Source of the DNA: Prorocentrum cordatum
Taxonomy: Eukaryota
Direction of reading: 5' to 3'
DNA length: 64,000 nucleotides
Assembly (NCBI GenBank): GCA_963575745.1
Contig: CAUYUJ010000259.1
Location: 372,001-436,000, forward strand
This document shows, in pieces, positions 16,609 to 61,136 of the stretch. Position 1 is the first letter of the stretch. The number at the start of each line of letters is the position of its first letter. Under the pieces are notes generated by a model. That model had not been told where the DNA came from and ran no database searches. It was given only the letters and a program-made list of their open reading frames with translations. The position numbers and the translations under genes were made by a program.

Positions 16609-16652
16609 GCCTTGGGGGCAACGGCATGGGGCGGATCGGCACAGGGGAGCGA

Positions 16653-17290
16653 CTCATCGACCACGGATGGTTGCTATACGTAGGTACATCGACGATGCGT
16701 CGTTGATATCAGGGCGATGTATCCACAGCCTCCCCCCCTCTTTCTCCGCCTCCACCTCCTCACTCATCGACCACGGATGCTTGCTATACGTAGGTACATC
16801 GACGATTCGTCGTTGATATCAGGGCGATGTATCCACAGCCTCCTCCTCCTCCGCCTCCACCTCCTCACTCATCGACCACAGATGTTTGATATACGTAGAT
16901 ACATGGACGAGTCGTTGTTGATATCAGGGCGATGTCTCCACAGCCCCACAGCCTCCTCCTCCTCCGTCGCCTCCTCCTCACTCATCGACCACGGATGGTT
17001 TATATACTTAGGTACATCGACGAATCGTCATGGCGATGTATCCACCATCTCCTCCTCCTCCGCCTCCTCCTCACTCTTCGACCAGGGGTGGTAGATACAC
17101 GTAGACACATCGACGATTCAACGTTGATTTCGGGGCGATGTATCCACAATCTCCTCCTCCTCCTCCTCCTCCTCCTCCTCCGCCTCCTCTTCCTCCTCCT
17201 CCGCACTCATCCACCACGGATGGTTAGTAGACGTAGATACTTCGACCATTCGTCGTTAATATCAGGGCGATGTATCCGCAGCCTCCTCCT
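16653..17290. repeat. Tandem array of 6 copies of a ~75-80 bp core separated by variable (CCT)n linkers
   Basis: Core ACTCATCGACCACGGATG..TACGTAGGTACATCGACGA.TCGTCGTTGATATCAGGGCGATGTATCCACAG starts at ~16653, 16762, 16867, 16980, 17073 and 17205. Confidence 0.9.
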
Positions 17291-17930
17291 CGTCCTCCTC
17301 TTCCTCCTCTTCCCCTCCTCCTCCTCGTCCTCCTCCTCCTCCTCCTACTCCTCCTCCTACTCCTCCTTCTCCTCCTCGTCCTCCTCCTCCTCCTCCTCCC
17401 CCGCTGCATCCCGCTCTGTGCCTATCCTTATGATGTTCCAGCCGACTTGAGCCTTGATCACCAGAAAAGGGGTTCGGGCACCAAGAAAGTTTCGAATCTG
17501 GAGCGCGTTTTGGCGTGCGCGGCCCTGGGAAGCGAATTCTCGACCGGTACCTCGCCAGCTTGCCGGGGAGACACTGCTTCGATAATTACTCTCCTGGGTG
17601 CTCGAAATTCTGTCTGGGACGTGGCCCGCAAGTACGATGGGGCCAACTTGCGACCATCCTCCTGGGTGGCCCAACAGGGGGTCCAGCGCAAAGGGGGTGG
17701 CGCAATAGATTTGGTGTAATAGATTTGGGGTCGTAATGGATTTGGAGTGTTTCTGGTGCGCAGATGTATCCCTGGATGTTCGCGTGCGATGCGTTCGTGA
17801 AAATGCAATGCCATACGGTTCTCTGGCGCAGTACTTGCCTGTGCAATACAGCTCCCCGAAGGCTGTTGCACCACCGCCCGTTGCACCTGGCCCCCCTCGT
17901 GGGTCACGAGGCATCTTTTTGCCTCTCCAG

Positions 17931-39005: not shown

Positions 39006-40319
39006 GTGGCGACGGGCCTGGCGACAGTAATTCAGTGGTTCGAAAATGGGGTCCTGAAGGACGAGGTCCTAGAGGCGAGGTGCTTCCAACTACGTCAATC
39101 CACCCTTGGGTCCATTCCTATCCTTGGGGCCCCATCCCTGAGGAACCCACCTCATAACCACCAAGCGACGTGGAGCGCGAAGGCTTCGTGTCTCAGGGCT
39201 GGCGGTTGCACCGCGCGGGGCTGCCGAGGGTGTGGTGCGCATGAGCGAGTGGGCACCAGGACAAGGGGCGCAGGAAAGGGAGGAGGAGGTGAAGGAGGAG
39301 GTGAAGGAGGAGGAGAAGGAGGAGGAGGAGGGGGAGGGGGAGGAGGAGGAGGAGAAGCAGGGATGGAACAGGAGAGGAGGAGATAAGGAGGAAACGGGGG
39401 AGGAGGAGGAGGAGGAACCCTGGGGGGAGAGTGGCCGCGGATTGGGATTACATCGGGCAGCCGGGGTTGCCCCCGGTGCTGGCCTGCCGGGGCGGGCGAG
39501 CGCAGAGACAAGCGAGATGTCGCGGGGTCTCGTCGACGCCGGTCTTCGCCGCCCGCCAGGCCACCTCAACCCAATCCGAAGGCCCCGATTTGCCCTCCAT
39601 TTCCAGTGGGGGGTTGGTCGGGGAACATTGAAGAAACACATCTGAAGCCCGCACCTCCCCCGAGCGCGAAATTCAGGTCTTCGGGTTGGGTTGGGGGGGT
39701 CTGGTAGGTAGTCAGGGTCGATGCTGGCTGTCGCCGATTCGCGAGGAAGCTCCACGCATGGACGAAGCCGAAGGTGGAAGATGACCAAGACCGACACCCA
39801 CGGCTCCGCATTGTTTATGGGTTGTGGCCGTCGTTTCGTTCCCTCCATGATGTACCGTCCTTACCGTGGCCATCTTATATGCGCGCTGATGCTTATCTCC
39901 AGGCCTCCCATGGAGGATGAGAAGGAGGAGAAGGAGGCGGAGGTGGAGGCGGTGACGGAGGCGGTCCCATCTAGGAAACCTCCATTATCGCGCCGGATAA
40001 TGGCCCTGACCGGGACAGATATGTCTTATTAGCGGCAGTCAAGGCATCCCATATTCATGTTTTCTGCCGCATGCCCCACTCCATGCAGTCGCGGCGTATT
40101 TCTGACGGCCCGTGACTGCGTTAGGGGCAGGCCTGTGATATTCCATTTCCTCCGCCCCTTCCCCTGTCTTCTCTCTATCCCCCTGTCTCTTTTATTCCCT
40201 TCCTAGTATACAGCTGTGTATCTGTGTATATAGATATACGCATATGCCTATGTACTTTTCTGTACACATAAGCATACACCTAATGATATGTATACATTAT
40301 CCCTCCAGTGCCTCCCCAT

Positions 40320-40353
40320 CTTCAGTATCATCATCATAATCAGGATCATCGTT

Positions 40354-40396
<43 letters not shown>

Positions 40397-40553
40397 ATGT
40401 AATACTCGTCACTATCATCACCACCAGCATCGACATACTCGTCATCATGAGTATCTTCATCGTCACCGTCATCATCACCATCGCTATCTTCATCGTCGTG
40501 GTCATGGTCATCGTCGTCGTCCTCATCCTCACCATCTCCATCATCATCGTCAC
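40320..40553. repeat. (CAT)n microsatellite abutting the helicase element
   Basis: Direct reading. It produces the spurious poly-His N-terminus of ORF 40308-41177. Confidence 0.95.
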
Positions 40554-40559
40554 GGCCCC

Positions 40560-43500
40560 CGCCACCTCTGCGGTGTCCTGCGGAATTCCAAGGGTGGCAA
40601 GAAGGGGAAATCAGGCAAGGGAAAAGGCAGCGTTGCTCGCGACGGACAAAACACCCCCGTCCCTGGATCCGACCCCCAAGAGCACACGGTGGACGATCAC
40701 CGATGGGAAACCGTCTTTCGGGAGGACCGCAACGCCCATACAGCCATCGGCACTGCCTTCCCTGGACTCAGGCAGGTTGCGGGCAAGCACATGAAGAGTG
40801 GGGCTCTCAAGCTCACCACCATTGACTCCAGCCAGGGTGGTGAGGCGGACTTCGTAATCGTACTGACCACGAGGAGCAACGGGAATCACAATTGGGGTTT
40901 TGTCGACGACGCCGAACGCCTGAACGTGGCATTCACTAGGGCCAAGCGGAACATCCTGATGTTGGGAGACGGGCGCATGTTCGCCAATGCCACCTGGTCC
41001 CAGCTGCGTGTGCTCTCCGAGTACGGGCGCTTGACCCGCCTCTGGGTTCGATTCGGGGGCGGCGCCCCCGCTGGCCACAGGAGATCCCTGGTCATAGACG
41101 AGAGCTTTGACCCGCTGCCCGCCCTCGCTACCTGGGTACCGTCCCCTGTCGCCTGGAGCTGCGATGCAAAGGGATAGAACGGGCGAAACGAGCTTGATGC
41201 TGCCAAAAAGAAACCACGCGACGCCCAGGCGAGCGGCTTCGCCGAGCGCTACAACACTGCCCTGGATGAGGACTTCGACTGGGACTCCCTGGGTAAGCTC
41301 ATCTCGGCCGGTCTCAACGAGATCCTCTCGACGCCTGCCTTCCACGTGCTCATCTATCTGGTGGCGGGGCTACACCCGCACGAGTTCTCGCTGGCAGAAA
41401 CACCGCGACAACCCGGCAAACTCGACCGCAAGGCTTGGTCGCACCTGGGCTTCCTGTTCGACATGTCCCTGGGTCTAGACGCGACCAATCTAGTCCACAA
41501 CATGCTCTGGGCAGCCATTGTGTGGACGCTCGGCCTTGACGCTCCCCGGGATGACGCGAACTACGCAGTCCACGACGACTCCCTTCCACCGGTGCCGCAC
41601 GTCAAAGGACGGCGTGTAACATTCTATGGGCGGCGCCAGTGCACCCCCAAGGGACTCTTCCGACAGGTCCCCCAGGCGTGGAGCGCAGCAACCAAGGATT
41701 GCTGCAGACACAGGAAACACCTTGGAATGGCTGGCCTACAGGAGATCCTCAGCGGCGCCTTCGCGACCCAAAGTGGGGCCAGCTCCGGAAGGAAATTATA
41801 AACGCAGATGGCCTCCCCATGGAATCCTGCAATACCCGGTCGCTCTTGGTCGTCATGATGTTAATTCTCCGCGAGCCACGCGTGTTCATGTGGCCGTTCT
41901 CTCACGCAGAGCAGGCTGGCGATGTCATCGAAGCCATCCGGGGTTTCTGTGTCCCGTGGCAAGAAGCGCACCGAGGATTCCGACACGACTTCGCAAGGAC
42001 CTGGGGACTCACGCTAGACGACCTAGCCGACCTCCACGGCCGCATCGAGGCGATCCTGCCCCACATCTCCAAGCTCGCAGCGGTGGCGCACCACCGCCCG
42101 GGCGCGCGGGCAGCTGGCTGCCCGCAGACCTGGAGTGAAAGGGACGGACAGGACTTTCAGTTGAAGGCGCCGATGCTCGTCCTCGAGAAGATTGTCCCAG
42201 CCGCCTCCCTGGCTCCCCATGGGTACGCACCGCTGCTCGGCGCGCGCGCTTCACGTCGCGCTTGCGGGTTCCGCCGCCGCCCTGGGCGACGACGATCGGC
42301 TCGCCAGGTTCGCCTACATCGGCGGCGGATTCGCATCATCCAACACCGACCTCAACGCCCCCTTGCCGTCCACCCCCGCCCCAGGCACCAGGCAGGACCC
42401 TCCGCGCATTCCCGACGACAGGCTGACACCCGATCAGAAGAATGGCAGGTTCAAGTGCGACAGGTGCGGTAAGGACCAGCTACGCTCCACAGAAGGCACG
42501 TGGATCTCCGACGACACGCGTCTGATGGTAGCACAGAACAGGCCCCAGGCCTACCTCAACGGTGCGATCGTGGGATGGCACTGCGAGGCCTGCTGGATCC
42601 GATACCTGGAGGAACAGGGCATCCCAGCACCAACCGGCGCAACAATCGCGGGCAAGGTCAAGGCACACGAGCAGCAGAGGACTGGTGCCGCAAGCGACGA
42701 AAAGGCGGACGCCCTCCCCTCCCTGGGTCACCTCCCACTTGGCTTTGGATGCAGCCCCCAGGCGGACACGAGGTCGCTGTCGGACCTCATCATGACGCCG
42801 ACTGGCATGCAGATCCCTGAGCGCGCCCACACCACGATTCCCATCCTACGGGTCAGAGATGAGCGGTTCGGCCTCAAAGCTGCGCAGAGCAAAATCTACT
42901 CCGCACGGTGCGACACATGCCCCCCAGGGGCTCCGCTCCTCGTCTGGAACACAGGAGCCCCTCCCTTGGGATGCTTTATATGGAAGCCAGCGGAGGGGGT
43001 AGGGGTTCCCGAGCAGGCCGGGCTGCCTCCCATCGAGAGGCGAGCCATAGCCTGGTGGGAGCGCAACTGGAACGCCACTTGGTGCTGCCGACGTTGCCTG
43101 GTCCCCGTATGGAATATCGGTCCTGCTACCCTGGACCGCATCCTTGATAGGGACTACACCGCGCTGCACCCAGCCGAGGCCCCTGTCCTCCCGACGCTCA
43201 ACAGCCAGATAGGAGCGGAGGTGCCAGTGGACATCTTCAGTTCTCTCCCATGGATAGGCGCTGACGCCAAGGCCCAAGATCGCTTCGCCAAGGCTGGATC
43301 GGCAAACCTCCCTGGGTCTAGCGCCTCGGGTGGAGCGGCCTCCGCTGCCGAGAGAGCCCCCTGGTCGCTGGCACAGCTCATGGAGCTCCTGCCAGAGCTG
43401 CCAGTCCCGCAGGGCCCGCTCCTGGACAAGAGGGGCGTCAACAACCCCGCGCTGAGCCCAGACGACCCCAGGAGCGGACCGGGCAGCGGAGATGGGGCTG

Positions 43501-44945
43501 TACAGCGACTCCTGGTAACCTACCTCCGGGACTTCCACCCTGGGCTGGACTACGCTTGGCGACAGTTCTGTCTCAGCAACCGCGACAGCAGCATCCCAGA
43601 GCCTAGGAGCGAAGAAGCCTCCTGGCCGGGCGGACGTTTGACGGAGTTTCTCAGGACGGCGTCCGGCGAATGCATCTCGAAGGATTGTGCCCCGCTCAGC
43701 CAGCCCTGGGAAGGCAAACGGCTGGCCGCTGCGCGGGTCGTCTCCCACCTCGCCAACGGCGAGAAACATGGGGAGTCCTTGGAGAAGCACGCCTCGGCCC
43801 TCGCCCCGGCGAGTGGCCTCAGCCCTGTCAGACACGACATGGGCACACTGACGAGTTTCCTACTCAGCCTCGGCGCCGACGCCCTGGCCTCGGCAACCAT
43901 CACTTCCCTGGCCGAGTCGCGCGTGCAGACCATGAGTGGGGACAGACCAAACACCTCTACGGCGGCCGACGCAGACAAACCCCTGGGCACGAGAGACGAC
44001 GACTCGCGTCTTGGCAACCCGGACTTGCCCGACCACGCTGCCAAGGACGAGGGCGGTGAAGACGAGATCCTTCCGACGGAAAAGGTCGATTCACCCGACT
44101 TTGGAACCCCCCACGAGTCTCCTCCTCCTGCATCTTGTTCGGGCTCGGCCACGGATGTCGACGACGACGGCCCTGGCGACAAGGCGCCTCAGCGGAGCCC
44201 AACGGCAGACAGCCTGGATCCCAGCTCTGACCGCGACCCGATAGCTGCCTGGGGTGGCCCTGCCAGCACCGACCAAAATGCCAGTGAAGCCAGGGGGCCA
44301 GATCGCGACGAAGACGCCCGCGACGGGTGGCGCGCAGAGTCGTCGCCCCCCATTGCGCAACCCACAGGTTCCTGGCCATAGGCTTACCTACCCTCGTTCA
44401 GCGGAGCGACGCGCACTCGACCTGCTGACCGACTCACCTGGGGGCCCCATGTACAAGGCCTGGCTGGGCACCGTGGACTCGGGGCGCCGCGGAGAGCCAC
44501 CCGCCAAACGCCTCACCAGACACCAAATGGAGTTGGGTGGAGTATTCATGCGCTCTGTGGACGGCCTACACGCAAGGCATTCGGCCCCCTGGATCCAGGG
44601 AACCCAAGTCAGACCCGAGACTGCGCACGGACGCGACCATCAACAAGTTTTTGGATGACTGGAAGGGCTGCGGATACAACGCCTACTTGATGGACAGGAG
44701 GTTCGACTTCCGCATCGATTGGGCCAAAGTGCGGGCCGAGTGCCTGCGTCGCACACGGCCCGACGGCACGGGCAAGGGCAACCACCAGCAGAGCAGCTGG
44801 CGCGAGCGATCGGCAAGCTCCTGGGACGCCTGGGGCACCTGGCAGAGTGACTGGAGCGCTGGCTGGCACGACGACCGTTGGCAGACGGGAGGCAAGCGTG
44901 GTGGGGGCAGGCCCGACGAACGTGGTGAAAAAAGGCAGCGATGGG
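40560..44945 (+). pseudogene. Intronless, disrupted long ORF: Upf1/DNA2-like SF1 helicase C-terminal (AAA_12-type) domain, duplicated Zn-finger-like module and repeated helical motif
   Basis: TIDSSQGGEADFVIVLTTRSN..GFVDDAERLNVAFTRAKRNILMLGD carries SF1 motifs V/VI. The frame continues through TAG at 41175-41177 into ORF 41346, then by frameshifts via ORFs 41639, 42192 (729 aa), 44254 and 44537. Confidence 0.8.
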
Positions 44946-47900
44946 GAGACTTCGCTCCCTTCCCACCCATCCCGCCACCTAGAGGGATATATTTCGACCT
45001 TGCTACACGCTTCGTGCAGCCTTCAGCTGCCTCCCGTACTCTCTCAACCCGTGTGGCAGCCTTGTTGCCTCCCACTCTGGTACACACACTTCCCGCCTTT
45101 GGACCCAAGTGTGTCGACCAGCAATACCATCTGCATCGCAGCGCGGGGGAGTGCAGCGTGCAGACCCTAGTTGGCCCCTGGCCCCACTGTAGTTGTTCTC
45201 ACCTCTGGCCCGAGCGGCCCCGTGCCCGGCCATGCTGCTTCGTGACCGACCGTGGTGCATTCCCGAGTCGCGCTTATAATCCCTGGGTTTCTCTTTCAAA
45301 CAGCGGCCTTCAGCTGCTCCTTCGACGACAGACTCGCTTGGCGGCATCCCGCCGCCCTCCCTGGCACGTGCACTTCCTGCCTTAGGACCCAAGTGTGTGT
45401 ACCAGCAATACCGTCCGCATTGCAATCACGTGTTGCGTGTGGTCATAGTGGCCCCTGGCCCCGCTGTCGCTTTTTTTACTCTGCCAGGTTCGTCCTGGCC
45501 CGCAGCTCTGAGACCGACGCTTGGGTGGTTTTCGCCCCGTCACGCTCAGATCCACGCTTCTACTCCCTGGGCTTCCCAAGTTACTACGGCCTTCAGCCGT
45601 GCGTCTCTACCCTCCGTGGGAGCGACCCTGGGCCTGGACCCATCGCCCTAGGGTCTCACGGTGTTCGGACAGTCATTTGACGTGGGTCGCCCCGCCGCGA
45701 CGGCGGAATGCCCGCCGGGTCCGCTTGCACCGTTCTCTGACTGGGTCGCTGACGTGCTCCCGTACATTGCTGCTTACCGCGGTTGGCCGTTGCGTGCCAC
45801 CCTGTGGATAGTGATGCATCGCTCCTACGTGTAACGGTGCGCTCAGTCGTCTCCCCATCGTCGCTCCCGCGCGCAACCTGGTTGTGCGACCACTCCCTGG
45901 GACTTTGTGACTTTGAAGGATGTGCTGCTGTGGGCATGCGACAGCTTCGCTTTCTACGAGCGCTCTTCTCTTACTTGCCTTTGCGTGGGTTGAGAGCCGC
46001 TGGGCGTCACTTAGCCGATTCCTGGTACACGCCCACTCCCGATTGACCGCGTGTCTCTCGCCAGGTCGGGTGCAGGTGTACTTCTGCACTGCGGCACACC
46101 ATATCTGTGGTCTCCCGCGTGCAGGCGCATCCCTCCGCAGTTGTTCCGAGGTTGGCCCCAATTGTCTATGACTTCTGGCGTACTCTGTCTGCCGCCGGGT
46201 GCTTTTTCTGAATCTGCGACGGTTCGCTGGCGCTGTCAGGAATCCCCCTCTTTGCTGGACGACGTCGGCTCTACGCCTTCGGTCTGCTCATACCCGATAC
46301 CCGACTGACACCCTTGGCCTTCTGACACCTTTTTGCACGGAGTCTGGTTCCCACCACCATGCGATTGTCGGTCCGACACGATCCATGACTGGGGATGTGC
46401 GGCGCGCCATTTTGGCCGCGACCGCCTTGGTTCCTGGGTGGCTGACCCCTCAGACTCCCTGGGTTGCAGCTTGCACTGCCGCCTGGCCTCTCAGACGCCC
46501 TGGGTTGCAGCTTGCACCGCCGCCTGATCCGCGGCCCCCGCGCGCGCCCGGGTAATTCGTCACGGCCGCAGCCCGACCGTGACCCGCCGCCGCCGGCGCT
46601 TCCGCCTGCGGCTGTAAAAAAAACTCCAAAAGCCCACCAGAAACGATGCCCAGGGGAGTTGTGTGAAGGAGGTGCGTAGGTAAACAGATCGTGAAACAAG
46701 GAGCCCAATTATGGTAAATATCTCTGGGCCCTCGTGGTGCCTCCCTGAGGCTGCTGTCGGAGAGTATCGGAGCCCCCCTGGGGCTCTGTTGGAAGGTATC
46801 GAGGCCCTCCTGGGGACCTCTTTGGGGCTTGTCGGGGGCCCTGGAAAACCTCTTGGGGTAGTTTTGGAGGGCGTCGATCGATACAGAGGGGATCCTTAAC
46901 TTCCCTCCCTCCTCCTGGGGGCACTCTTTGGCGCTCGTGCGGCCGTATCGTAGGCATTTTGGGCCCCTCACGGGGTTCTCCTGGGCAATTTTGGGGCATC
47001 TCGGGCCCCCATGATTCAATCGCAAGCGAAACCGCGAGACGGCAAATATCATTGATGTCCCATCTGGGTTTGAAGGCTTTGAGGATCTTCGGGGATTCCT
47101 GGATGGCCCTAAGGAGGCATGCTGCATGCCATCTCGAACCAGGTCCGGCTGTATTGAGCCATCTTGGAGGCCACCTTGGAGCGTCGAGTGCTCTATTGGA
47201 GCCATCGTCGGCGGGAGGGTCGGCGGGGGGTACCCCTCGCCAAAAGGAAGAGGGTTTGGGAAGAGAACATGCCCATGTTGGCAGACTACCTATGCACCGA
47301 TGGATGGTGGGATTTTCTTACCGGTCTATTCACAATCGGTTTTTTGTCTGCCTTTACTCTTACGCTCCCCCTCCAGTCGTTATCTCTGTCTCTTCTCATC
47401 ATTGTCCTCCTCGGTTTGCGTTCCTTCCTTGTCCTCCTGCCGATCATCTTCATGTCAATCCGTCCTTTTTCCACCTACTCGCAGTCGTTATCCTCTATCA
47501 GCTATTCCGCCATCCTCTTCCTCATCTCTTTCTTATTTTTCTTCTTATTCTTCTTCTTCTTTTTATTATTCTTCCCTCTTTTCAGATGAAAATGTATCAG
47601 GTGTCCAGGCTTTCCTGCGTCCCAGCGTTACACAGAGTTCCACAGCTAGGTCTCTATCTGAACCAACCGAATCATGACATCATGGGCGTCCTCCTCCTGC
47701 TCGGCCCCTAATCATCCAAAGAGCGACGCGGTCACTGTCCGGTCCGCAGAATCAGCTGTCACTTGCCGATCCGCCGAATCGGCTTTCAGTTGTCAGTCTG
47801 CCGTCGGCGTCTGTGGGCATCGGGACGTTTCCTTCTTTCGCTTCCTAGGCTTCCCGCCATCGCCTGGTCTCCTTCAGCGGAGCTGCTCCTCTCTCCATTC

Positions 47901-50224: not shown

Positions 50225-51017
50225 GCAGCGCCCGGCAGACTGCCGTGTCCCTGCCCCGTCCCGTCCTTCCCTCAATCCTCTTCCTCCTCCTCTTCCTCCT
50301 TTTCTTTCTCCTCCCCCTCCTCCTCTTTCTCTTTTTCCTCCCCCTCCTCCTCCTCCTCCTCCTCCTGCGCCTCCTCCTCCTCCCCATCCTCCTCATCTTC
50401 CTATTCCTCCTCCTCCTCGTCCTCCCCCTCCTCGTCCTTCTCTTCCTCCGCCACTCCGTTCTCCTCTTCTTCCTCCTCCTCCTCCTCCTCCTCCTCCTCC
50501 TCCTCCTCCTCCCCCTCCTCCTGCGCCTCCTCCTCCTTCGCCACCTTCTCCTCCTCTTGGGGGCTCCTGAGGCCTCCTCGGGTTTCCTGGGGCCGCTTGG
50601 GATCTCTTTCGGCCTCTTTCTGAGACTTTTGGAGGCGCCCTTGGGCCCAGGAAGTCCGAGGAGGTCCCAAAGCCTTGGGTTGCCCCAGCCTCGCCCTCCA
50701 CCTTCCGCACCTTCCGGAAGGAAGGTCACTTCGTGTATTTTGGGGTATATGTCGATGTCTGCGGATGTCTGTATATGTCTTGCGTGTCTGTGGATGTTTT
50801 TCCCCATATCCTAAGGATTGGGTTTCTTGTTATTACTCTGACGCCTCCCACGCGCGGACTCCTTCCTCCCGCTCGCGCCTCCCGCCTCCCAATGATAATC
50901 ACCAGATAAGACAAGACAATATAGGATACTACAAGATAAGATAAGATAGCACAATATATGATAAGAAGAGATTTCAAGATAAGATAAGATAAGTTAAGCT
51001 CACACTCGCACTCTCTC

Positions 51018-51853
51018 ATGATCACAAAACGCTGCCAGGGGCATCACTTGGGAGCCCCAAGGGGGAGCCACCCTGGCTGATCTCACGAGCCCGTTCGCGC
51101 CGATTTTGGTGGGACGTCTCAGCTAGAATTGCCGTTTGGCGCCCCAACATGTATCTCTTGAGAGCCTCATGGTCACAAAACGCTGCCAGGGGCATCATTT
51201 GGGAGCCCCAAGGGGGAGCCACCCTGGCTGATCTCACGAGCCCGTTCGCGCCGATTTTGGTGGGACGTCTCAGCTAGAATTGCCGTTTGGCGCCCCCAAC
51301 ATGTATCTCTTGAGAGCCTCATGGTCGCAAAACGCTGCCAGGGGCATCATTTGGGAGCCCCAAGGGGGAGCCACCCTGGCTGATCTCACGAGCCCGTTCG
51401 CGCCGATTTTGGTGGGACGTCTCAGCTAGAATTGCCGTTTGGCGCCCCCAACATGTATCTCTTGAGAGCCTCATGGTCACAAAACGCTGCCAGGGGCATC
51501 ATTTGGGAGCCCCAAGGGGGAGCCACCCTGGCTGATCTCACGAGCCCGTTCGCGCCGATTTTGGTGGGACGTCCTCAGCTAGAATTGCCGTTTGGCGCCC
51601 CCAACATGTATCTCTTGAGAGCCTCATGGTCGCAAAACGCTGCCAGGGGCATCATTTGGGAGCCCCAAGGGGGAGCCACCCTGGCTGATCCACGAGCCCG
51701 TTCGCGCCGATTTTGGTGGGACGCCTCAGCTAGAATTGCCGTTTGGCCTCCCCAACATGTATCTCTTGAGAGCCTCATGGTCACAAAACGCTGCCAGGGG
51801 CATCATTTGGGAGCCCCAAGGGGGAGCCACCCTGGCTGATCTCACGAGCCCGT
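51018..51853. repeat. Near-identical 151-153 bp tandem array, ~5.5 copies
   Basis: Anchor C(A/G)CAAAACGCTGCCAGGGG at 51023, 51174, 51326, 51478, 51631 and 51782. Confidence 0.97.
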
Positions 51854-51855
<2 letters not shown>

Positions 51856-51901
<46 letters not shown>

Positions 51902-51903
51902 GG

Positions 51904-51978
<75 letters not shown>

Positions 51979-52013
51979 GAGTTGAGAGAGGAGACAGGCG
52001 AGAGAAAGAGAGA

Positions 52014-52075
<62 letters not shown>

Positions 52076-52112
52076 AGAAGAGAGAAGAGAGAGAGAGAGA
52101 GAGAGAGATAGA

Positions 52113-52186
<74 letters not shown>

Positions 52187-52285
52187 CGAGAGAGAGAGAG
52201 AGAGAGAGAGCAGAGAGAGAGAGAGAGAGAGAGAGAGCGGGAGAGAGCGAGGGAGAGCGAGAGAGAGCGAGAGAGAGCGAGTGAG

Positions 52286-52327
<42 letters not shown>

Positions 52328-52366
52328 CGACAGAGAGCGAGAGAGAGCAAGAGAGAGCGAGAGAGC

Positions 52367-52424
<58 letters not shown>

Positions 52425-52430
52425 GAGAAA

Positions 52431-52464
<34 letters not shown>

Positions 52465-52490
52465 AGAGAAGAGAAGAGAAGAGAGAGAGC

Positions 52491-52523
<33 letters not shown>

Positions 52524-52762
52524 GAGAGAGCAGAGAGAGAATAGAGAGAAGAGAGAGAGGAGAGAGAGAGAGAGAGAGGCAGAGATAGAGGCAGAGAGAG
52601 AGAGGCACAGAGAGAGAGGCAGAGAGAGAGAGAGAGGCAGAGAGACAGAGGCAGAGAGAGAGGCAGAGAGAGAGAGAGAGGCAGGGAAAGAGAGGCAGAG
52701 ACAGAGAGAGGGCAGAGAGAGAGAGAGAGACAGAGAGAGCAGAGAGAGCAGAGAGAGAGGCA
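51856..52762. repeat. ~900-bp (GA)n tract grading into (GGCAGAGA..)n
   Basis: Direct reading of the sequence. Confidence 0.97.
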
Positions 52763-54520: not shown

Positions 54521-55296
54521 ATGTCTTAGTTTCGGGGCGGCGAAACTCGGACACCGCGACTGGAGTCTCAGTTCCACGCAGCCGAAACTCTGACATCCGA
54601 TCGTGGAGCATGAGCTACGGCCCGCGAAACTCTATCAGTACGTGTGTGCCTTAGGTTCACGCGACGAAACCCGACGCCCTTTACCGAATGTTTGAATTTC
54701 GCGCTGCAAAGTTCAGACTCCGAGACTGGTGTCTTAGTTCCGCGCGCCCGAAGCCCAGACGCCACGACTGGCGTCTGAGTTTCGCGCGCTCGAAACTCAG
54801 ACACCCTGACCGAATGTCTGAGTTTCGCGAGCGAAACTCAGACATCACGGCCGAATGTCTGAGTTCCGTTGGCCGAAACTCAGGCATCGCGGCCCCATAT
54901 CTGAGTTTCGCGAGCCGAAACTCGGACTTCACGGCAGCCTGTCTGAGTTTCGCGGGCCGAAACGCAGGCATCGCCACCAAATGTCTGAGTTTCGCGGCCC
55001 GAAACTCAGACATCGCGGCCCCATGTCTGAGTTCCGCGGGCCGAAACTCGGACATCACGGCCTCATGTCTGAGTTTCGCGGCCCGAAATTCAGACATCGC
55101 CACCGACCGTCCGAGTTTCGCAGCCCGAAATTCAGACATCGCGGCCCCATGTCTGAGTTTCGCGGGCCGAGACTCGGACATCACGGCCCCATGTCTGAGT
55201 TTCGCGGGCCGAAACGCAGACATCGTCACCGAAAGTCCGAGTTTCGCGGCCCGGGACTCAGACATCGCGGCCGCCTGTCTGAGTTTCGCGGCTCGG
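54521..55296. repeat. Array of ~19 x 42-bp palindromic (hairpin) units
   Basis: Unit = ATGTCTGAGTTTCG-N5-CGAAACTCAGACAT-N9. A perfect 14-bp stem occurs at 54981-55013. Starts fall every 42 bp from 54855 to 55275 and are more degenerate leftwards. Confidence 0.95.
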
Positions 55297-58200: not shown

Positions 58201-59079
58201 CTGATGAGTGTGGTGAGGACGAAGATGGTGGTTGCCTCATGATTTTTCGGGCGGCTGACCATGGGGATGGCCATGCAGTTGATGATGCGTGTGAATGTGA
58301 TAGTGTTCATGGCGGTGATGCGAACGATGACGATGATAGTAAATTCGACAAATACGATGCCGACGAGCCGAGAGATGCCGGCAACCATAAAGTAAACGGC
58401 GACGATCTATCATAATGTATTCGCGTGTTTTTGGAATTCGTTTGAAATCCAACCAAGTCCGCGAAATTCATGACAACTTTGTGTAATTCTATAGAATGTA
58501 CAAAACATATTTCGCAAAAATGCGGAAGGTCGTGAACGGATGGTGCGCAATGTGGAGGGCGAGGGCAGGAGGTCTTGCGGGCGGTCAGGGGCAGGGGGGA
58601 ATTCGGGCAGAATCCCCCGCGCAAGGGTTTCCAAGTTTTTTTTCGTAGGACGTCTCAACGTTTTTGGGTTTTCGCGGGAGAGACCTGGCATAACCATGCA
58701 GTAACATAAAGTTCAACAAAAAACCTAACAAGAAACCTCCCCCGCACCGCGACGCCTCCGGGACTTCCTGGGGCTTCTGGGGGGGTCCCCAGAATCCCTG
58801 GAACACTGGGATGCCCCAGGGGGCCCCAGGAGGTCCGAGGAGGCCCCAGAAGGCCCCGGGAGGTCCCAGGAGGCCCATGACGTCCCGTGCGGCCCCAGGA
58901 ACCCCCACGACGTTCCCAGAGACCCCAGAAAGTCCTATAAGAGGTCCCGGCGTCCCCAGGAGGCCCCGTGGGCAGCGCCCCTTCTCCCTCCGCCGCCCCG
59001 GGCAGGGGCCCCATCCCACTTCCTCGTCATCCTCCTGTTCCCCCTCGCCCCCCTCCCGGCGTGGAGGCCCTCCCTCGCC

Positions 59080-59910
59080 GCGCCTCGACGGCGGCGGCTG
59101 CGGCGAGGGAGGGGCCTCCACGGCGGGAGGAGGGAGCGGGGGCGGCGTCGACGGCGGCGACGACGACTGCGTGGGCGGCGGGGGCCATGTTGCCGACGGC
59201 AGCGACGACGGGCAACGGCGACGCCGACCGACGGCAGCGACGACGACGGCGACAAAGACGGCGGTGACGGGGGCGGTGGCGACGGCGCCGCTGGCAATGA
59301 CGGCGGCGACGCCCACGACAGCGACGGCTGCGTCGGCGTCGGCGGCGGCGGCGACGCCGACGACGACAGCAGCAACAACGACGCGGACGGCGAAGACGAC
59401 GACGGCGACGACGCTTGTGCGGACGACACTGGCGACAGCAACGGCGGCGGCGACGCTGGTGGGGACGGCGACCGACGGCAGCGGCGACGACGACGGTGAC
59501 GGCGACAAAGACGGCGGCGACAGCAGCGGTGGCGACGGCGCCGCCAGCAGCGGCGACGGCGACGCCGACGATAGCAAAGACGGCGTGCGTCCACGCCGAG
59601 CACGGCGGCGGCGGTAGCGCAGGCGACGGCAGCAACAATGACGCGGACGGCGAAGAAGACGGCAGCGACGGCGACGACGCTTTTGGGGGCGACACCGGCG
59701 ACAGCAACGGCGGCTGCGGCGTCGATGACGGGGACGGCGATCGACGACGGCGACGGCGACAGTGGTGGCGGCGCAGCCGACAGCGACGGCGACGACGGCG
59801 ACGCCGACGGCAACGGCGACGCCGACGGCGACGGTGACGGCGACGACGACGACCCCGACGACGGCAGCAACGTCACCGACCGCGACGACGACGTCGGCGA
59901 CGATTACGAC
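59080..59910. repeat. (GAC/GGC)n degenerate trinucleotide tract
   Basis: Direct reading. It explains the 785-aa minus-strand ORF. Confidence 0.95.
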
Positions 59911-60111
59911 GCTGGCCTCTCCCGGGGCCCAAGTTTCTTGTAGTTCTGCGCTGCTGCAGTCTCCCCAAATGATCTCCAGACGTGCACGTGAAGCTCTGGT
60001 TGTTGGCAGTTCCGTCTGGGTTGCTGTAGTTTTACTGGGCCTGGTCTGGCAGCTCTGTCTGGTCGGTCTGTCTCGCGGGGCCCGGGGCTGCAGGTCGGGT
60101 GTTACTAGAAG

Positions 60112-60324
60112 TCTGGACGCCCGAGATGGGCACTGAAAGAATGGGTGCAATGCCCAACAGCGGATCTTGTTCCTTTTGAGCAGGGCTCGCTGTCCACGCC
60201 GCCGCGGCCTGTGTCCATTCGAGACAGAGGGCCGCCTGCCCAACAGCGGCCGCCGTTGGTTTGGGACAACATTTGCTGTTGGGCATTGTACCCATTTTTT
60301 CGGTATCCATTTCGGGCGTCCAAA
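60112..60324. mobile_element. MITE-like element, family D, copy 2
   Basis: 213 bp and colinear with 876-1089. Exact 5-bp TSD AGAAG at 60107-60111 and 60325-60329. Confidence 0.85.
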
Positions 60325-60485
60325 AGAAGTGCGCCTGGCCCAAGGTGCCCCTTGCTTTTCGCTCAATTTTGGAGCCCCTGGGGCCCTCTGTGCCTCGTGG
60401 TAGGGTGCTCTGGAGGCCGCCTGGGCCACCCCGAGCATCCCGGGGGCACCTTGGGCCAGGGGCACTCCTGGCAGCATCCGAGCAG

Positions 60486-60584
60486 GGGGTGCGCCCGAGG
60501 CGGGCATCAACCCGGCCATGCTGGAGGCCATGCGCCAGCAGGCCGCGTCCGCGCCCGGCGGGCCGAGCGGCGCCGGGCTGCTAG
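60486..60584 (+). CDS. Gene 2 exon
   Basis: CAG acceptor, phase 1. Translates (G)GAPEAGINPAMLEAMRQQAASAPGGPSGAGLL(G). AG|GC donor. Confidence 0.6.
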   Translation, partial: GVRPRRASTRPCWRPCASRPRPRPAGRAAPGC

Positions 60585-60703
60585 GCGGGCCGCCCCCGCG
60601 GCCGTGCCTCGCGCCGCGCCTCGCGCCGCGCGCGGCTTGCGCGGGCCGCCGCGCGCGGCCGCTGCCGCGACGGCGACGACGACGACGACCTCGGCTCGAG
60701 GCC

Positions 60704-61136
60704 CAAGTCGGGCATGTCCCTCTCGAGGGGGAAAACATGCAAGAACGGTACTCTCTGGGCCTCCCAGATTGGGGTCCGAGTGCAGATGGGGTCCGAGGAT
60801 CGCGCCGCATCGCCGATGCATCGGCGGTGCATCGGCGGTGCATCGGCGATGCGGCTCGATGTGGGGCCCAATTTTCTCCCCGCCGACGTCGCCGATGCAC
60901 CGCTGACGTCGCCAGTGCATCGCCGATGCATCGCCGATGCACCAGCGATGCATCGCCGATGTATCGGCGATGCGGCGAGATCCTCCGGCCTGATCTACCC
61001 GGACCCCATCTAGGAGGCCTCTAAGTAAAAAGTTGTCAGAGGACGATTTGTTCGTGCTCCTTTGATTGTTGTTTAGTATACACGTGTTCGACTACCTTTT
61101 ATGTTGCCTCCTGAATCCGCCTGTTGCCCGACCTAA
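60704..61136. mobile_element. Family A element interrupted by a nested family B element (60758-61019)
   Basis: Left TIR CAAGTCGGGCATGTCCCTCT, right end AATCCGCCTG..TGCCCGACCTAA, 9-bp duplication CTCGAGGCC. The internal insert has its own TIRs GGCCTCCCAGATTGGGGTCCG / CGGACCCCATCTAGGAGGCC. Confidence 0.8.

Follow-up and report, generated by a model that had tools for sequence, protein, structure and literature searches.

The locus described here raises the question of what a block of about 6 kb with long coding-like stretches is, and how it came to lie in the genome of the dinoflagellate Prorocentrum cordatum. The block starts near position 40553 of a stretch of 64,000 nucleotides (nt), which comprises positions 372,001 to 436,000 of the forward strand of contig CAUYUJ010000259.1 (assembly GCA_963575745.1). 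The whole stretch is called the window, and all positions are given within it. An initial annotation had taken the block, down to 46530, for a relatively young, 5'-truncated insertion of a mobile or virus-like element, or for a retrocopy, encoding an Upf1-like helicase fused to unrecognised domains. In our analysis it is best explained as a decayed pseudogene fragment, probably a 5'-truncated retrocopy, of a lineage-restricted family of cellular-type Upf1-like helicases, and we assign this reading a probability of roughly 55%.

Coding-derived sequence and its disabling mutations

Real coding-derived sequence of about 4.4 kb was found at 40553-45000 on the forward (+) strand, broken by one TAG stop and three clear frame changes. 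Stop-to-stop open reading frames (ORFs) of 296, 207, 305, 738 and 318 amino acids (aa) follow one another on this strand between 40287 and 45385, in two alternating frames. The 738-codon frame is not a chance opening, because a stop is expected about every 40 codons at a base composition of ~65% GC, and simple arithmetic gives it a chance probability of ~6e-9. The GC content of codon positions is periodic in frame 0 at 40.8-41.7 kb, in frame 2 at 41.7-42.3 kb, in frame 0 at 42.3-44.1 kb and in frame 2 at 44.4-45.0 kb. Third-position GC (GC3) in the coding frames is 0.72-0.82; the periodicity matches the ORF frames, traces the three frame changes independently, and is flat past 45000. Over the 4,083 nt of coding-like sequence GC is 64.0% and GC3 74.7%, with 61.9% GC in the non-coding tail and 60.6% in the whole window. 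This composition is host-like, as passages of PMC10666404 give a mean GC of 65.9% for P. cordatum coding sequences and 59.7% for the genome.

The block can be followed along P0006/P0154, a metagenomic protein of 2945 aa encoded by one unbroken ORF on ENA contigs of 12.6 and 19.2 kb. In tblastn, residues 1005-1356 of P0006 correspond to 40602-41711 (frame 0), residues 1387-1520 to 41804-42205 (frame 2), and residues 1516-2134 and 2151-2512 to 42192-44375 (frame 0), with a weak match of residues 2762-2819 to 44768-44932. Judged from these alignments, the window holds roughly the last two-thirds of a P0006-type gene without intron-sized gaps. The frames and the disabling mutations are as follows.

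40287-41177, + strand: ORF of 296 aa, in the same frame as the next
41178-41801, + strand: ORF of 207 aa, parted from the preceding one solely by the TAG
41555-42472, + strand: ORF of 305 aa
42165-44381, + strand: ORF of 738 aa
44429-45385, + strand: ORF of 318 aa
41175-41177, + strand: in-frame TAG nonsense codon, with Glu at the same position in the 76%-identical relative P0008
41730-41804, + strand: first frame change, 0 to 2, from the ORF map and GC3 phase; P0006 residues 1356-1387 span 41711-41804
42192-42306, + strand: second frame change, 2 to 0, from the ORF map, tblastn with P0006 and GC3 phase
44376-44540, + strand: third frame change, 0 to 2, possibly of more than one indel, from the ORF map and GC3 phase

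The ORFs, the GC periodicity and the P0006 homology agree with the ~4.4 kb of continuous coding-like sequence, and with the single in-frame stop, which had been read from the sequence initially. The absence of introns noted there is likewise borne out, the block being colinear with P0006 residues 1005-2512 with no gap beyond ~30 aa. Frameshifts do exist; their number, put at about four, comes to three clear frame changes in our count. Pfam searches of the antisense ORFs of the block and of the ORFs in its tail gave nothing real.

The long open frames and the preserved helicase motifs V and VI could also belong to a live gene or exon, perhaps with an internal start, in which the stop and the frameshifts are assembly errors or are bypassed by RNA editing or short introns. 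Editing of mRNA is mentioned for P. cordatum in a passage of PMC10666404. Against this stand the loss of the whole ATP-binding half of the helicase, and a nonsense codon together with three frame changes, the first of which lies in a zone that reads as other than a homopolymer run. A live gene is hardly tenable on this evidence. The window copy is unable to encode a working helicase and does nothing now.

Truncation, domain order and kind of helicase

The 5' boundary is abrupt. Family homology starts at 40569 by tblastn, or at ~40551 by eye, right after an (ATC)n microsatellite which ends at 40552, so that the sudden start at a microsatellite described earlier stands; (ATC)n-like tracts are also present elsewhere in the window. 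The break point falls inside the last ~70 residues of an Upf1-type superfamily 1 (SF1) helicase core, and the window fragment aligns to residues 530-597 only of the 623-residue UPF1 chain 2xzo, both motifs V and VI included. The RecA1 half with Walker A/B (motifs I and II), present in the relatives P0006, P0046 and P0025, was absent from the whole 64 kb in tblastn searches with 153 helicase-family queries. All 163 high-scoring segment pairs, which came from 152 of these queries, fall within 40569-43187. The missing Walker A/B half, also claimed initially, is thereby confirmed, and the window copy therefore represents a piece of a family member and not a functional one. The first residues of P0007, a fragment with 93% identity, correspond on reading to the 'DGWPxGP' stretch of the family translated in the +1 frame. 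This suggests that the P0007 copy continues upstream of the break point, and that the truncation is specific to the window locus.

40327-40552, no strand: (ATC)n microsatellite at the abrupt 5' boundary (Tandem Repeats Finder, period 3, 75 copies)
40553-41174, + strand: C-terminal end of the helicase core (end of RecA2), then a family-specific linker (Pfam AAA_12, 2.2e-17)
40818-40850, + strand: motif V, TIDSSQGGEAD, read from the sequence
40917-40946, + strand: motif VI, RLNVAFTRAK, read from the sequence
41178-41760, + strand: first half of domain A (GLHPHE ... DRKAWSHLGFLFD ... LGLDATNLV), frame 0, aligned with P0004, P0006, P0046, P0011, P0025, P0038 and many fragments
41804-42205, + strand: second half of domain A (REPRVFMWPF ... 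GDVIEAIRGF ...), frame 2, 36.6% identical to P0006 residues 1387-1520 in tblastn
42306-43187, + strand: two Cys4 zinc-ribbon-like modules (CxxC ... WxCxxC[W/L]) and a conserved linker, 65-67% identical to P0001 and P0002, with Cys columns kept in P0006 and P0046
43305-44375, + strand: helical domain, then a low-complexity acidic and Ser-Pro-rich stretch, matched by P0006
44540-44960, + strand: C-terminal conserved mini-domain and Trp-rich tail, frame 2, from a weak tblastn match to P0006 residues 2762-2819 (E 0.10) and resemblance by eye
45000-46530, + strand: non-coding tail, a putative remnant of the 3' untranslated region with an uncertain 3' limit; no codon periodicity and no Pfam family in its ORFs

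Pfam AAA_12 covers residues 167-228 of the first ORF, the sole ORF of the block with a Pfam family. The Upf1-like SF1 RecA2 signature (TxDxxQGxExD; RxNVAxTRA) is present in the window copy, and together with the AAA_12 match and the best PDB matches, UPF1/NAM7, it upholds the Upf1-type assignment. Within the 738-aa ORF, residues 10-571 align with P0006 residues 1516-2134 and residues 381-737 with P0006 residues 2151-2512. The 190 residues translated from 44429-44998 contain 7.9% Trp, with GW/WG and SW/WS motifs. Alignments with P0006 and P0046 show that the architecture proposed initially, a helicase with zinc fingers and a repeated helical domain, was right in outline.

The tail contains internal duplications. 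A ~285-nt tandem duplication lies at 45010-45590, with cores at 45067-45140/45351-45424 (81%) and 45172-45202/45449-45479 (81%), and a 41-nt unit is repeated twice at 46442-46523. No terminal repeats were found in the scanned tail region 44800-46800. Simple sequence repeats make up a fraction of 0.04 and 0.087 of the flanks but 0.0 of 40553-46530, and DNA is shared between the block and the remaining window only at the boundary microsatellite. This agrees with the reported lack of microsatellite or shared-repeat insertions. Rfam and tRNA scans found no matches. With up to 3 mismatches, the 21-nt dinoflagellate spliced leader (DinoSL) matched nowhere in the window; where the 5' end is truncated, none would be expected. 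Just short of the 46530 limit, the DinoSL core occurs as an exact 11-mer at 46406-46416 (+), and four matches with at most one mismatch, one of them exact, were counted against 1.39 expected. A second leader-like stretch was seen at ~46949-46964 (+), ~540 nt past the first (14 of 16 nt by eye). Both sit among TCTTGGGGCC-type short repeats and may be coincidental.

The family profile scores best on cellular helicases, namely UPF1 (3.3e-50), NAM7, SMUBP2, SEN1, DNA2 (2.3e-31), ZNFX1 (1e-28) and Aquarius, and gives nidovirus nsp13 1e-8 to 5e-7. By profile, the helicase core is far nearer to cellular UPF1 than to nsp13. NCBIfam assigns it to the IGHMBP2 family and Pfam to AAA_11/AAA_12. Viral_helicase1 is secondary, being sub-threshold in P0006 (15.6 bits, cut-off 21) and reaching 25.4 bits in P0046 against 148 bits for AAA_12. 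In PADLOC the best match is MkoA of Mokosh, over the helicase core only (P0046, 3.9e-63; window piece, 1.2e-17); MkoA is a prokaryotic defence helicase whose accessory domains are not common to the family. The likeness to UPF1/NAM7, SMUBP2/IGHMBP2, SEN1 and DNA2 lies in the helicase core of the family, and for the window piece over UPF1 motifs V-VI; unlike UPF1, the family has no detected CH domain, and the window copy has no ATPase half. ZNFX1 shares the arrangement of a large Upf1-like helicase followed by Cys-rich zinc modules (PDB 9q9z, 1e-28). However, its similarity is confined to the helicase core, and the zinc modules of the family are of the CxxC...WxCxxC type, without NFX1-type fingers.

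The kind of helicase also bears on whether the block could be an endogenous viral element, derived from an RNA virus with a nidovirus-like or alpha-like SF1 helicase polyprotein or from a polinton-like virus. SF1 helicases in giant ORFs are typical of such viruses, and helicase-bearing viral insertions are reported for dinoflagellates in passages of two papers: Viral_helicase1/beny-like sequences in Symbiodiniaceae (PMC9651163), and in Oxyrrhis an endogenised polinton-like virus (OmPLV) with a Pif1-type PF05970 helicase fused to pPolB in low-GC DNA (PMC12721341). The helicase here is instead of the AAA_11/AAA_12 type; neither PF05970 nor pPolB is present in the family, which has a large ORF containing an SF1 helicase in common with OmPLV and with Helitrons. 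With UPF1 at 3e-50 against nsp13 at 1e-8, host-like GC, and no RNA-dependent RNA polymerase, PolB or capsid, a viral origin is very improbable. Helitrons use a Pif1-type helicase together with Rep/HUH. A Helitron identity was rejected, since no Rep or Pif1 family was found in the window ORFs, P0006 or P0046 and the helicase is Upf1-type.

The multi-copy family and its architecture

An exhaustive HMMER search with the translation of 40560-41801, the TAG being read as X, returned 4,156 proteins at E<=1e-3, most of them Upf1-like helicases of a generic kind. A total of 43 cluster representatives matched the same query at E<=1e-10, and six at E<=1e-30. Besides P0006, long relatives are P0046 (1730 aa), P0038 (633 aa) and P0004 (513 aa, Logan), and the P. 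cordatum gene models P0011 (878 aa) and P0025 (1200 aa) also belong to the relatives. P0006 is matched outside the helicase core by 21 of the 152 proteins compared. More than half of the looked-up matches (16 of 30) come from one dataset, EukProt EP00959, and the rest from ENA, Logan, MERC and NCBI P. cordatum. Six EP00959 fragments overlap in one stretch of 58 residues in domain A, where they are 35-81% identical in pairs, and represent at least six distinct loci or transcripts in one dataset. Identity of the fragments to the window is 44-93%. These comparisons show a lineage-restricted, diverged multi-copy family. The multi-copy family expected by the initial annotation is supported by the 43 representatives and the six diverged fragments over one segment, and its existence removes the case of a single parent gene without a family. 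Multi-copy status alone does not show mobility.

Family fragments were also found within gene models of other content. The 738-aa ORF matched two P. cordatum models, P0001 (557 aa) and P0002 (1061 aa), with 65-67% identity over ORF residues ~95-280 only. In both models ~160-175 residues match the zinc region of the family, and because the remainder is unrelated to the family they are chimeric gene models that have swallowed a family fragment. P0001 is annotated as 'Ion transport domain-containing protein'. EukProt labels EP00959 as 'Pyramimonas sp. CCMP1952', a green alga, whereas the named genome matches are from the dinoflagellate P. cordatum. This label has no entry in the NCBI taxonomy, and nothing on 'CCMP1952' was found in the literature; the green-alga label on the closest fragments may be due to mislabelling or contamination. 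Word-indexed protein searches gave only a lichen-fungus helicase at 4.8e-4 and no match for the zinc region, and in the ESM Atlas the best score, 0.80, was at chance level and gave no usable match. No close full-length relative of the window subfamily was found among the predicted proteins searched.

Intact relatives are very large, of ~1,700-2,900 aa, and consist of an N-terminal C2H2-like finger, sometimes a RING finger, the helicase core, domain A, the two Cys4 zinc-ribbon-like modules, one or two helical domains and a Trp-rich tail. Colinearity between P0006 and P0046 extends over the helicase, the two halves of domain A and the two zinc modules, and both proteins carry the N-terminal pattern C-x2-C-x7/8-H-x5-H; the RING finger is found in P0046 (zf-RING_2, 2.7e-6). 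The helical domain is present twice in P0006, and residues 381-571 of the 738-aa ORF match both copies. The tails of the window copy, P0006, P0046 and P0002 contain 6-10% Trp with GW/WG and SW/WS motifs, against an overall Trp content of 2.5-2.8% in P0006 and P0046. The Trp-rich tail is disordered.

Conserved motifs of domain A are GLHPHE, DRKxWSH, LG[LI]DxxN and GDV[IL]EA. It has no Pfam match even at E<=5 and no significant PDB profile match. An RNase III/Dicer-like identity found no support, with an hhalign probability of 0.06 against E. coli RNase III, a weak test on a single template, and no Pfam Ribonuclease_3. HEPN RNases carry the signature R-x4-6-H in an all-alpha domain. The DRKAWSH of domain A fits R-x4-H, with R in 15 and H in 14 of 17 aligned sequences; the intact P0006 is without the H. 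For the zinc region, no zf-NF-X1 or other Pfam zinc finger was found even at E<=5, and the PDB search gave a marginal match to the eL43 zinc ribbon (E 0.068) and nothing significant.

Outside the helicase core and the RING finger of P0046, nothing in the family was recognised by Pfam, NCBIfam, PHROGs, PADLOC or PDB sequence searches; no library searched contains a counterpart of the C-terminal domains (~1,800 aa) or of the N-terminal sequence (~600 aa). The family is undescribed and new to these libraries. The architecture had initially not been recognised from described transposon classes, which holds insofar as Pfam annotates nothing but the helicase and the RING finger of P0046; the helicase core is of the cellular UPF1 type.

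This family could in principle be an undescribed selfish element, mobile or virus-derived, in which the helicase polyprotein is the large ORF and the window copy a dead 5'-truncated insertion. The family is multi-copy, strongly diverged and often fragmentary, with pieces inside unrelated gene models; its long ORFs on metagenomic contigs are intron-free, with ~1,800 aa belonging to no known family, and the window copy is free of microsatellites, unlike its flanks. However, no reverse transcriptase, transposase, Rep/HUH, recombinase, protease, polymerase or capsid was found in P0006, P0046 or the window ORFs with Pfam, NCBIfam, PHROGs and PADLOC. The claim of a mobile or virus-like element is not sustained by relatives of 2945 and 1730 aa that carry no mobility, replication, virion or other structural gene, although a novel enzyme could be hidden in the unannotated parts of the family. 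Pattern scans of IMG/VR and JGI metagenome contigs, whose reach is limited to close relatives, gave pattern matches and no relatives, and tblastn against phage records gave no relatives either. We found no transposable elements with an Upf1-like helicase in the literature, and nothing on this family in that on dinoflagellate Upf1-like helicases. Since the helicase is also cellular UPF1-type, GC and GC3 are host-like, and 44800-46800 contains no terminal repeats, a selfish element is unlikely.

Origin of the window copy and meaning of the family

Next to the observed homology, colinearity, truncation, disabling mutations, multi-copy family and domain layout, the last being the same in the 1730-aa P0046 as in P0006 and the window, stands the route of copying, for which we infer retroposition as the most economical. 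It is favoured because the 3' end is kept, the 5' end is lost and introns are absent; a truncated 5' end together with an intact 3' end, as expected of retrocopies, is found in the window copy. Reverse transcription of a family mRNA would have stopped short of the 5' end, and the cDNA would have inserted into non-coding DNA beside the microsatellite. Neutral decay after insertion would then account for the gain of one nonsense codon and at least three frameshifts. What the window copy retains is the 3' two-thirds only, which runs from helicase motif V through to the C-terminus and is followed by ~1.5 kb of untranslated tail. Passages of PMC11453091 call retroposition rampant among dinoflagellates. 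According to passages of PMC10666404, 83.7% of P. cordatum genes have introns and the average gene comprises 11.7 exons of ~240 bp, so that 4.4 kb without an intron is unusual in an ordinary gene of this species. Like dinoflagellate retrogenes and processed pseudogenes, the window copy has no introns, is dispersed, and has lost its 5' part while keeping its C-terminus and 3' tail; it differs from them in having no leader relic, no clear poly(A) and no definable target-site duplication. Of the earlier view of a young, 5'-truncated insertion or retrocopy, the truncation, the lack of introns and the decay are retained, whereas youth is at most suggested by the absence of microsatellites.

Several points weigh against this origin. 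The tail has no clear poly(A), the only candidate being an A8 run at 46616-46623, which lies ~1.6 kb beyond the coding end and outside the 46530 limit given earlier. Because the 5' junction consists of a microsatellite, no target-site duplication is readable. Introns may be lacking from the family natively, as the unbroken ORF of P0006 suggests, in which case their absence says nothing on the copying route. No close full-length relative was found among the predicted proteins to show an intact parent in the same genome, and the green-alga label of the closest fragments leaves the dinoflagellate framing probable and short of proven. Moreover, many scattered, truncated and diverged copies are also typical of a transposable element family.

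The main rival is a DNA-level origin by segmental duplication, ectopic recombination or capture, with the copy cut at the microsatellite by a later deletion or rearrangement. The 5' boundary lies exactly at an (ATC)n tract, of a type common in the window and a plausible breakpoint; neither poly(A) nor a target-site duplication was seen, and with P0006-like relatives apparently natively intron-free the lack of introns is not diagnostic. Dispersed duplicates make up 64.8% of P. cordatum genes according to a passage of PMC10666404. On the other hand, a complete C-terminus and a long 3' tail with the 5' part missing give the classic polarity of a retrocopy, and no flanking family DNA or second fragment was found within the 64 kb. 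We regard a DNA-level duplication as the less probable route, though one that keeps some weight, and retroposition as the preferred one.

Around the block, where the initial annotation had read 50-150 bp exons, dense MITEs and an intron, no host exons were recognised. Pfam matches for 145 ORFs of 140 aa or longer, and for a further 46 of 70-139 aa in the flanks, were all sub-threshold or low-complexity, and a codon-periodicity exon scan was dominated by trinucleotide microsatellites. A 152-nt satellite (5.5 copies, 97% identity) at 51015-51853 is followed by a ~900-bp (GA)n tract at 51857-52759. At 54773-55291 a 42-nt tandem repeat of 12.4 copies, also visible with a 126-nt period, has a palindromic unit, GTCTGAGTTTCG...CGAAACTCAGAC, which makes it a hairpin-forming array; the ORFs over it gave spurious or sub-threshold Pfam matches to DUF3447 and ABCC10_N. 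A complex tandem array at 16652-17333, with periods of 93-215 nt, combines a unique ~70-nt unit with a CTC-type microsatellite. An open frame of 811 aa at 58588-61020 (- strand) has no Pfam family and contains GAC/GGC-type triplet repeats, and GC reaches the window maximum of 73.5% at 59-60 kb; the frame is probably an artefact of composition, or else a low-complexity exon.

As a relic, the locus itself is of little import. What it exposed is a family of giant Upf1-like helicases in marine protists that is large, multi-copy and diverging fast. The Trp-rich tail with its GW/WG/SW motifs resembles the Argonaute-binding 'Ago hooks' that the GW motifs of SDE3 reportedly form. Because of this tail and by analogy with UPF1, ZNFX1, MOV10/SDE3 and MkoA, intact members are most likely 5'-3' RNA helicases in RNA surveillance or silencing. 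It is quite unlikely, though conceivable, that the family is an undescribed self-propagating element of Prorocentrum-like dinoflagellates, or an arms-race RNA-targeting system amplified by retroposition. In its giant ORF a possible HEPN-like domain (R-x4-H), zinc ribbons in tandem and a Trp-rich tail resembling an Argonaute hook would then be joined to the Upf1-like helicase, and the window copy would be a dead 5'-truncated insertion. If truly self-propagating, the family would be a new kind of element.

Published gene models seem to be contaminated with pieces of the family, as in the P. cordatum model P0001, and masking these pieces would improve annotation. Regulation in dinoflagellates is mostly post-transcriptional according to the abstract of PMC12787238. 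If the family does act in RNA surveillance or silencing, it would offer an entry point to RNA-level genome defence in dinoflagellates.

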